Part shown: positions 8,034 through 9,157 of the stretch, piece after piece
Layout of the letters: every line of letters starts with the position of its first letter
How positions within the stretch are numbered: position 1 is the stretch's first letter
Sequence record: PP274704.1
Reading direction: 5' to 3' (one strand)
Source: Escherichia phage ECp13
Length of the DNA stretch: 64,000 bases
Translations under genes and position numbers: made by a program
Notes under the pieces: generated by a model
The model's input: the letters and a program-made list of their open reading frames with translations, nothing else
Databases searched by the model: none
Told to the model about the DNA's origin: nothing

Positions 8034-9157
8034 ATGCAAGAACTTTTTAACAATTTAATGGAACTATGTAAGGATTCACAGCGTAAGTTTTTTTACTCAG
8101 ATGATGTAAGTGCATCTGGAAGAACTTACAGAATTTTCTCATATAATTATGCATCTTATTCTGATTGGTTACTTCCAGACGCATTAGAATGTCGTGGAAT
8201 TATGTTTGAAATGGATGGAGAAAAACCGGTAAGAATCGCTTCTCGTCCTATGGAAAAGTTTTTTAACTTGAATGAAAATCCATTCACAATGAATATCGAT
8301 TTAAATGACGTCGATTACATTCTAACAAAAGAAGATGGGTCTTTGGTATCAACTTATTTAGACGGTGACGAAATTCTGTTCAAATCAAAGGGTTCAATCA
8401 AATCTGAACAGGCTTTAATGGCTAATGGAATTTTGATGAATATTAATCATCATCAGTTGCGTGACAGACTTAAAAAATTAGCCGAAGATGGATTTACTGC
8501 TAACTTTGAATTCGTTGCTCCGACGAATAGAATCGTTCTTGCTTATCAAGAGATGAAAATCATTTTATTGAATATTCGTGAAAATGAAACAGGCGAATAC
8601 ATTTCATATGATGATATTTATAAAGATGCTGTTCTTCGTCCATATCTAGTTGAACGATACGAAATCGATAGCCTAAATGGGTTGAAGAAGCTAAAAATGC
8701 AGAAAACATCGAAGGCTATGTTGCCGTGATGAAAGATGGTTCTCATTTTAAAATTAAGTCTGACTGGTATGTGTCTCTTCATAGTACAAAAAGTTCGTTA
8801 GATAATCCAGAAAAATTGTTTAAGACTATTATTGATGGTGCATCAGATGATCTTAAAGCAATGTACGCTGATGATGCATATTCATATAGAAAAATTGAAG
8901 CATTTGAAACGACTTATCTGAAGTACTTAGACCGAGCTCTGTTTTTAGTTCTTGACTGTCACAATAAGCATTGCGGCAAAGATAGAAAGACTTATGCGAT
9001 GGAAGCGCAAGGCGTTGCTAAAGGTGCTGGAATGGAACATCTGTTCGGTATCATCATGAGCCTCTACCAAGGGTATGATAGTCAAGAGAAGGTTATGTGT
9101 GAAATCGAACAGAATTTTTTGAAAAATTATAAAAAATTTATCCCAGAAGGATACTAA
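8034..9157 (+). pseudogene. rnlA: RNA ligase 1 with an apparent 1-nt deletion frameshift near 8670-8674
   Basis: ATG at 8034 with AGAGGA ribosome-binding site; N-terminal part carries the KEDG adenylation motif; the frame stops at 8727 and the Rnl1 sequence continues in the other frame ([23 protein letters not shown]...). 8034..9157 plus one nucleotide gives exactly 374 codons. Confidence 0.7.

Follow-up and report, generated by a model that had tools for sequence, protein, structure and literature searches.

It is established for phage T4 that RNA ligase 1 (Rnl1), the product of gene 63 (gp63, encoded by rnlA), has as its ligase role the repair of tRNA against PrrC (PMC3400036; PMC6379707). 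Motifs I, III and IV of these ligases hold the catalytic metal, whereas the specificity of Rnl1 for tRNA comes from its C-domain (PMC6379707). The same protein also promotes the attachment of the long tail fibres, although it is 'not absolutely essential' there (PMC3004832). Here, we consider rnlA of Escherichia phage ECp13 (sequence record PP274704.1) within a stretch of 64,000 nucleotides (nt; 64 kb), referred to below as the window. As the sequence is written, the gene lacks one base and its product is divided between two open reading frames (ORFs). We infer a technical cause: the missing C at 8672-8673 is probably a sequencing or assembly undercall in what would be an ordinary rnlA.

The rnlA locus in the window

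The window belongs to a Tequatrovirus (T4-like) genome and runs from frd.3 to gene 7, in reversed orientation relative to the T4 map. Its closest public relatives are ~97% identical to it, and none of 50,697 phage genomes is an identical record. The rnlA gene occupies 8034..9157, between denA and alc, which is also its place in T4 and in phage pSs-1.

The preliminary description of this DNA had read the ORFs 7998..8729 and 8726..9157 as a single Rnl1, with a KEDG motif in the first frame, an out-of-frame tail ending in a stop at 8727, a frame switch at about 8670-8674 and a length of 374 codons from the ATG at 8034 once one base is put back. This anatomy stands in every part. Both ORFs exist, and a tblastn search with the Rnl1 of pSs-1 gives two abutting matches in different frames (query residues 1-221 and 214-374), so that the split rnlA is not a chance pattern. 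The first ORF has 243 amino acids from its GTG, or 231 counted from the ATG at 8034; its KEDG motif is 100% conserved with the T4 Rnl1 structures (PDB 2C5U/5TT6). The Rnl1 reading picks up in the -1 frame at 8672, directly after an in-frame TAG, and this frame holds both motif IV (E227-G228, 8711-8716) and motif V (K240/K242, 8750-8758). Alignment with four relatives shows a single gap at AG-CCT, one base being absent relative to AGCCCT or AGTCCT, which puts the missing base at 8672-8673; on the minus strand TAGGGC has become TAGGC. One C added at the site gives exactly 374 codons. The restored protein is 98.1% identical to T4 Rnl1 (7 differences) and aligns over residues 1-374 with 2C5U, 5TT6 and 9DO4 (E about 1e-252), being near-identical to the solved enzyme over its full length.

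The break had also been placed inside the nucleotidyltransferase domain, with an inactive product expected, and the domain searches agree. The first ORF matches PF09511 at profile positions 1-158 of 227 only (E = 9e-24, Pfam), and the break falls between ligase motifs III and IV. The motif I lysine (K99) is present in the N-terminal adenylyltransferase domain, and motifs IV (EG) and V (KxK) join it on one polypeptide only after one base has been added. The all-helical C-terminal domain specific to Rnl1 is found in the second ORF, as a complete PF20819 (1-122 of 122, E = 1e-39, Pfam). With motifs IV and V cut off from motif I, the gene as written, judged by this layout, cannot yield an active ligase. 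The second ORF, as listed (8726..9157), has 143 amino acids and starts at GTG 8726 or ATG 8729. The GTGATG overlap of the premature stop with these starts is a product of chance, though it could permit reinitiation and thereby a C-terminal fragment of 142-143 amino acids. The sequence GAAGG sits 10-13 nt upstream of the overlap (8726-8731).

Among the 280 phage records that match the 70-nt junction, not one has the deleted form (the best match is 70/71, with one gap), nor was that form found in IMG/VR, JGI metagenome or GTDB genome contigs; as a positive control, the intact junction was recovered from those contig sets with the same degenerate pattern. A two-ORF layout shared by relatives, which had been entertained as a possible arrangement of functional genes, can therefore be set aside, with 0/280 phage records and no contig of these sets having it. 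A single intact rnlA of 374 amino acids is present in all of the 11 relatives checked and in all 10 contigs with an identical NrdB, the latter contigs being 95.5-97.4% identical to the window.

Shigella phage Sfk20 has an intact Rnl1 to which the restored protein is 100% identical; the genes of the two differ at 15 nucleotides, and every one of these differences is synonymous. Ten other relatives differ from the window in rnlA by 12-44 synonymous and 1-7 non-synonymous codons. There is no sign of decay after the break, and rnlA was under purifying selection until essentially the present. Given this lack of decay, the deletion must have happened very recently, if the phage carries it at all. 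The substitution E282A was first taken as private, and as decay following the frameshift, but Sfk20 has it too. Other candidate disruptions were rejected as well. The genes of TB004 and ESh34, considered as further broken copies, are both intact in records that are barely annotated, and the extra base of TB004 lies upstream of the rnlA ATG. The short RNA ligase coding sequence (CDS) annotated in Sfk20 reflects a mis-called start in an intact ORF: in MW341595.1 the full rnlA ORF of 1125 nt extends over 189-1313, and the annotated CDS of 909 nt covers 405-1313.

Five private deletions of one type

The window was aligned with pSs-1, T4, ADUt, ZCEC15 and IsaacDaniel and searched for insertions and deletions (indels) private to it. 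Besides a 6-nt duplication in gene 26, the 64 kb contain exactly five such 1-nt indels, of which rnlA has one (Table 1). All five are deletions and all lie in G/C runs of 3-4 nt. At every site the closest records are the same as the window apart from that one gap. The deleted form is shared by none of the matching records in the phage collection for deletion 3 (0/501), deletion 4 (0/83) and deletion 5 (0/480, all full-length matches), and by none of ~112 for deletion 2.

In the restored sequence, each of the five affected runs lies in the stem of a predicted DNA hairpin, and each deletion destabilises its predicted hairpin by 1.4-3.0 kcal/mol. Deletion 2 falls within the intergenic hairpin GGGGCT-TTAT-AGCCCC, in its 3' arm, phage SH7 being identical to the window over the other 100 nt. 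The run of deletion 3 pairs with CCCTA 13 nt upstream, and deletions 4 and 5 are in the 5' arms of GGGGC-CGAA-GCCCC and GGGGCC-TTGC-GGCCCC, respectively. Three of the five are terminator-like intergenic hairpins. A complementary run 3-12 nt away accompanies four of the five affected runs, compared with 56 of 448 others (p = 0.0013). Read on one strand, the context is T-W-GGG(G)-C at all five sites (TAGGGC twice, TAGGGGC twice and TTGGGGC once). In a count that predates the confirmation of sites 108 and 53794 as deletions, three of the seven copies of TAGGG(G)C were affected, against none of 446 other G/C runs (Fisher p = 2e-6). The idea that TAGGG(G)C is a restriction or defence motif being purged from the genome was judged unlikely, since the changes are deletions and not substitutions, and three coding copies are unchanged.

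Table 1. Coordinates in the window of the rnlA features, the private deletions and the other genes of RNA repair
Feature	Coordinates	Strand	Details
rnlA 5' ORF	8034..8729	+	Rnl1 residues 1-213 followed by 18 residues out of frame; TGA 8727-8729
Motif I, KEDG	8328..8339	+	K99 (8328-8330), the adenylylation lysine
Missing base in rnlA (deletion 1)	8672..8673	+	CCC to CC; window CC, relatives AGC-CCT or AGT-CCT (Ser213-Pro214); stem AGCCC-TAAAT-GGGTT
rnlA 3' part	8672..9157	+	-1 frame; Rnl1 residues 214-374 and stop
GTGATG stop/start overlap	8726..8731	+	premature TGA of the first ORF overlaps GTG/ATG of the second; read from sequence
Deletion 2	109-111	+	CCC in the window, CCCC in phage SH7; between frd.3 and frd.2
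Deletion 3	46164-46165	+	GG in the window, GGG (TAGGGC) in all relatives; intergenic, upstream of gene 19
Deletion 4	46866-46868	+	GGG in the window against GGGG in relatives; between gene 18 and the next ORF
Deletion 5	53792-53794	+	GGG in the window against GGGG in relatives; between wac and gene 13
pseT (polynucleotide kinase/phosphatase)	10907..11815	+	full length; PF13671 and PF25109
rnlB (RNA ligase 2)	37839..38843	+	full length; PF09414 and PF18043

The remainder of the window is of a different character. In a tblastn comparison with 85 pSs-1 proteins, 80 genes of which lie wholly within the window, 79 could be read over their full length in a single frame without a stop, rnlA being the sole exception. 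There are 388 homopolymers of at least 5 nt, almost all of A/T, and at none of them is there a private indel or a break in a conserved gene. The 205 private substitutions comprise 170 synonymous and 31 non-synonymous changes; 176 are transitions and only 4 are non-coding. An assembly that is error-prone in general is excluded by the intact 79 of 80 genes, the lack of any private indel in an A/T run and the natural substitution spectrum. Non-coding sequence has four private deletions against four private substitutions, a marked excess of indels that are of one peculiar type. The run-associated 1-nt indels that distinguish the five relatives are in A/T runs of 4-6 nt, apart from a recurrent G5/C5 event, and no 1-nt indel in a G/C run of 3-4 was found among them.

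In gene 26, an in-frame tandem duplication of 6 nt at 31493-31504 (a GCAAAA/GCAAAAG repeat, atgCAAAAGCAAAAGatt), absent from the five relatives compared, makes the baseplate hub protein gp26 two residues longer. The genes td (2640-3497) and nrdB (6374-7543) are continuous ORFs; the window is without the T4 group I introns and the homing endonucleases I-TevI and I-TevIII, and mobE, segD and segE are also absent, all of which is normal variation among T4-like phages. Two tandem full-length paralogues of alt (RNA polymerase ADP-ribosyltransferase) occupy 20524-24675, as in pSs-1 and ADUt, where T4 has one alt and the remnants alt.-1/alt.-2; the first alt of the window is 71.5% identical to its pSs-1 counterpart. 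Private non-synonymous changes cluster in gene 31.2 (8 changes, 14216-14449) and in hoc (4 changes, 35842-37257), which are 86-87% identical to pSs-1; these clusters probably come from mosaic recombination or from diversifying evolution of a surface protein, and not from error.

Origin of the missing base

The preliminary description had dealt with the rnlA break by itself, and its interpretation is supported in part. The break is one of five private deletions of a shared type, which favours an artefact; assembly error had already been named there as the main alternative. Under the reading that we prefer, systematic undercalls of a single base at short G/C runs in hairpin stems would have affected five sites, rnlA included, and the phage itself would carry an intact rnlA of 374 codons with a product identical to the Rnl1 of Sfk20. 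Five losses from G/C hairpins in one genome, with none in hundreds of relatives, are far more typical of a measurement artefact than of five independent mutations, and the class of five taken together with the lack of gene decay tilts the balance towards an artefact and away from a biological loss.

There are precedents for such errors. Compression at GC hairpins is a classical problem of Sanger sequencing. T-even DNA carries hypermodified cytosines, and hypermodified cytosine severely impairs nanopore basecalling (PMC12838424). For Illumina sequencing, sequence-specific errors have been described with two triggers, GGC and inverted repeats, the latter 'likely associated with gene terminators', and base deletion is a possible outcome (PMC3141275). 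In the window, GGC or GCC is found at or just upstream of the error at all five sites, and an inverted repeat that would fold the single strand is predicted at all five, with stems of 3-7 bp as against the >8 bp of that paper. The triggers fit the Illumina GGC/inverted-repeat class, the difficulty of reading the modified cytosine of T-even phages and the compression of GC hairpins.

Several observations weigh against an undercall. The assembly is clean elsewhere, as the 79 of 80 intact genes and the natural-looking substitutions attest. Although only 9-12% of the G/C runs of at least 3 nt are non-coding, non-coding sequence holds four of the five deletions, and the remaining one is in a gene that the phage can dispense with. 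The three unaffected copies of TAGGG(G)C (28942, 53653 and 53714) are all coding; placed by their coordinates on the gene map, 53653 and 53714 fall in gene 13 and 28942 at the junction of genes 28 and 29. Such an avoidance of coding sequence is what purifying selection would leave if the mutations were real. The avoidance is partly explained by the fact that G/C-run hairpins are mostly intergenic terminators, but the pattern does not vanish. Finally, sequence-specific errors at the level of reads are usually directional and outvoted in the consensus.

It is conceivable, though on balance we think it unlikely, that the break is instead a real and very recent -1 frameshift, fixed for example while plaques were being purified on a laboratory host without prr, and that ECp13 carries an rnlA null allele. 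The sequence as given does encode the split arrangement, the remainder of the assembly is clean, and the private deletions avoid essential coding sequence in the way that selection on real mutations would dictate. The gene rnlA is dispensable on ordinary hosts (PMC3004832; PMC3400036; PMC6379707). The loss of function would be well founded in this case, since the metal-holding motifs I, III and IV and the tRNA specificity of the C-domain (PMC6379707) are the features that the break separates. The first ORF would give residues 1-213 of Rnl1 followed by 18 junk residues, retaining motifs I and III and losing motifs IV and V and the C-domain; the second, if reinitiated at GTGATG, would supply motif V and the C-domain (residues 232/233-374). 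Motif IV would be lost together with the rest of residues 214-231, which neither piece would contain, and a complete active site would be present in neither, nor in both together.

Were the break real, the consequences for the phage could be stated. The genes pseT and rnlB had been called intact, and each is indeed full length with both of its expected domains (Table 1). PseT partners Rnl1 in tRNA repair as the healing enzyme; it could heal PrrC-cut tRNA-Lys, but the ends would stay unsealed, and the phage would consequently be restricted on prr+ hosts (for the pathway, see PMC3400036; PMC6379707). This sensitivity, which the preliminary description had predicted for a real loss, is what established T4 biology would lead one to expect. 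That account had left out tail-fibre attachment, in which gp63 has its second function; long tail fibres would probably attach more slowly.

What counts against a real mutation is that it asks for five -1 deletions, each of independent origin and private to the lineage, in hairpin stems with G/C runs of 3-4 nt, a type otherwise unseen. The usual A/T-run indels are represented by no private example in the window, and none of the five events is present in hundreds of relatives. There are no secondary mutations in rnlA. The hairpin deletions turn a perfect stem into an imperfect one, the opposite of the quasi-palindrome-templated frameshifts that the Ripley model reportedly proposes for T4. No independent assembly of the same phage, which might confirm the deletion, was found in public collections by means of the exact truncated Rnl1 ORFs, PseT, gp18 and NrdB. 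If all five deletions were nevertheless real, they would represent an undescribed structure-directed signature, by which small hairpins lose one G:C pair from their G/C-run stems, in a phage that would be a natural Rnl1-null T-even; we hold this to be doubtful. Such a signature might possibly be tied to the replication of DNA containing glucosylated hydroxymethylcytosine (glucosyl-hmC) through hairpins. Selection would then have left the intergenic sites and the dispensable rnlA, the sealing step being lost with PseT and Rnl2 kept.

Alternatively, the two ORFs might constitute a functional gene, expressed by a programmed -1 ribosomal frameshift within 8672-8727 or as cooperating halves. The frame would be regained by a -1 shift at any point in 8672-8727, and CTA-AAA-A (8691-8697) could allow low-level slippage of tRNA-Lys, giving a protein of 374 amino acids with 7 substituted residues; translation of the second ORF could be coupled through the TGATG stop/start overlap. 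However, when 8672-8729 is read by codons there is no canonical X-XXY-YYZ heptamer, only A-AAA-A at 8693-8697. The fold of 8691-8790 is not significant, with a minimum free energy of -16.7 kcal/mol compared with a shuffle mean of -15.5 (z = -0.39; 67 of 200 shuffles fold equally well or better). The two-frame layout is conserved in none of the 280 relatives, and the sequence flanking the break is plain wild-type coding sequence. Cooperation of the halves fares no better, as the two combined still lack residues 214-231/232, including motif IV. Frameshifting is rejected for want of a heptamer, of downstream structure and of conservation, and a functional two-ORF gene of either kind is extremely improbable.

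A contingency locus, in which a hypermutable repeat would flip rnlA on and off reversibly as a form of bet-hedging, is just as far-fetched: reversible +/-1 homopolymer frameshifts have been described in T2 and T4 (bioRxiv 10.1101/2025.10.21.683753), and the rnlA event is also in a homopolymer, but the loci of that study are runs of at least 6 nt, mostly of A, and do not include any mention of rnlA, whereas the rnlA run is CCC, too short at 3 nt, with no variation in run length at the site in the 280 public relatives.

An undercall thus remains the probable source of the missing C, and the practical consequences are chiefly for curation: an rnlA 'pseudogene' of this kind should not be counted as a gene loss without read support. 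The reads would be checked at 109-111, 8672-8673, 46164-46165, 46866-46868 and 53792-53794. For T-even assemblies more widely, the sites would offer a diagnostic error signature, namely the private loss of one base from a G/C run of 3-4 nt that lies beside GGC in a hairpin stem. If the break were real, ECp13 would be a natural T4-like phage without its counter-defence to the PrrC anticodon nuclease and without the helper of tail-fibre attachment, which is a testable prediction of host range. In neither case is this new biology, rnlA being a textbook gene; because rnlA-null mutants of T4 are classical, no new principle would follow.

The locus beside known systems

The closest described system is T4 Rnl1 itself (gp63; 2C5U, 5TT6, 9DO4). 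The restored protein of 374 amino acids matches it from end to end (E = 4e-252, 7 substitutions) and has the same pair of domains, PF09511 and PF20819; the gene likewise lies between denA and alc, and pseT follows 2 kb downstream. It is unlike T4 in that the frame in the window is broken after Ser213, and no single ORF encodes the enzyme.

The errors described by Nakamura et al. 2011 (PMC3141275) are the nearest counterpart to the class of five. The likeness is in the GGC or GCC at all five runs and in the inverted repeats, three of them terminator-like; the differences are the shorter stems in the window and the nature of the published errors, which are directional, arise in single reads and are normally outvoted. 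The contingency loci of T2 and T4 resemble rnlA in that a gene with a bearing on host defence loses its function through a +/-1 change in a mononucleotide run, and differ in having runs of at least 6 instead of 3, of A instead of G/C, and polymorphism, which the relatives of the window lack at this site.

If the deletion were real, the proper comparison would be with the amber and rli mutants of T4 gene 63, to which it would add another loss-of-function allele of a non-essential bifunctional gene. The same restriction by prr+ hosts and the same slower attachment of tail fibres would be expected (PMC3004832; PMC3400036). The window differs from these selected laboratory mutants in that its putative -1 frameshift is in an apparent natural isolate. 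Furthermore, the rli alleles split the ligase from tail-fibre attachment, and truncation at residue 213 would probably lose both.

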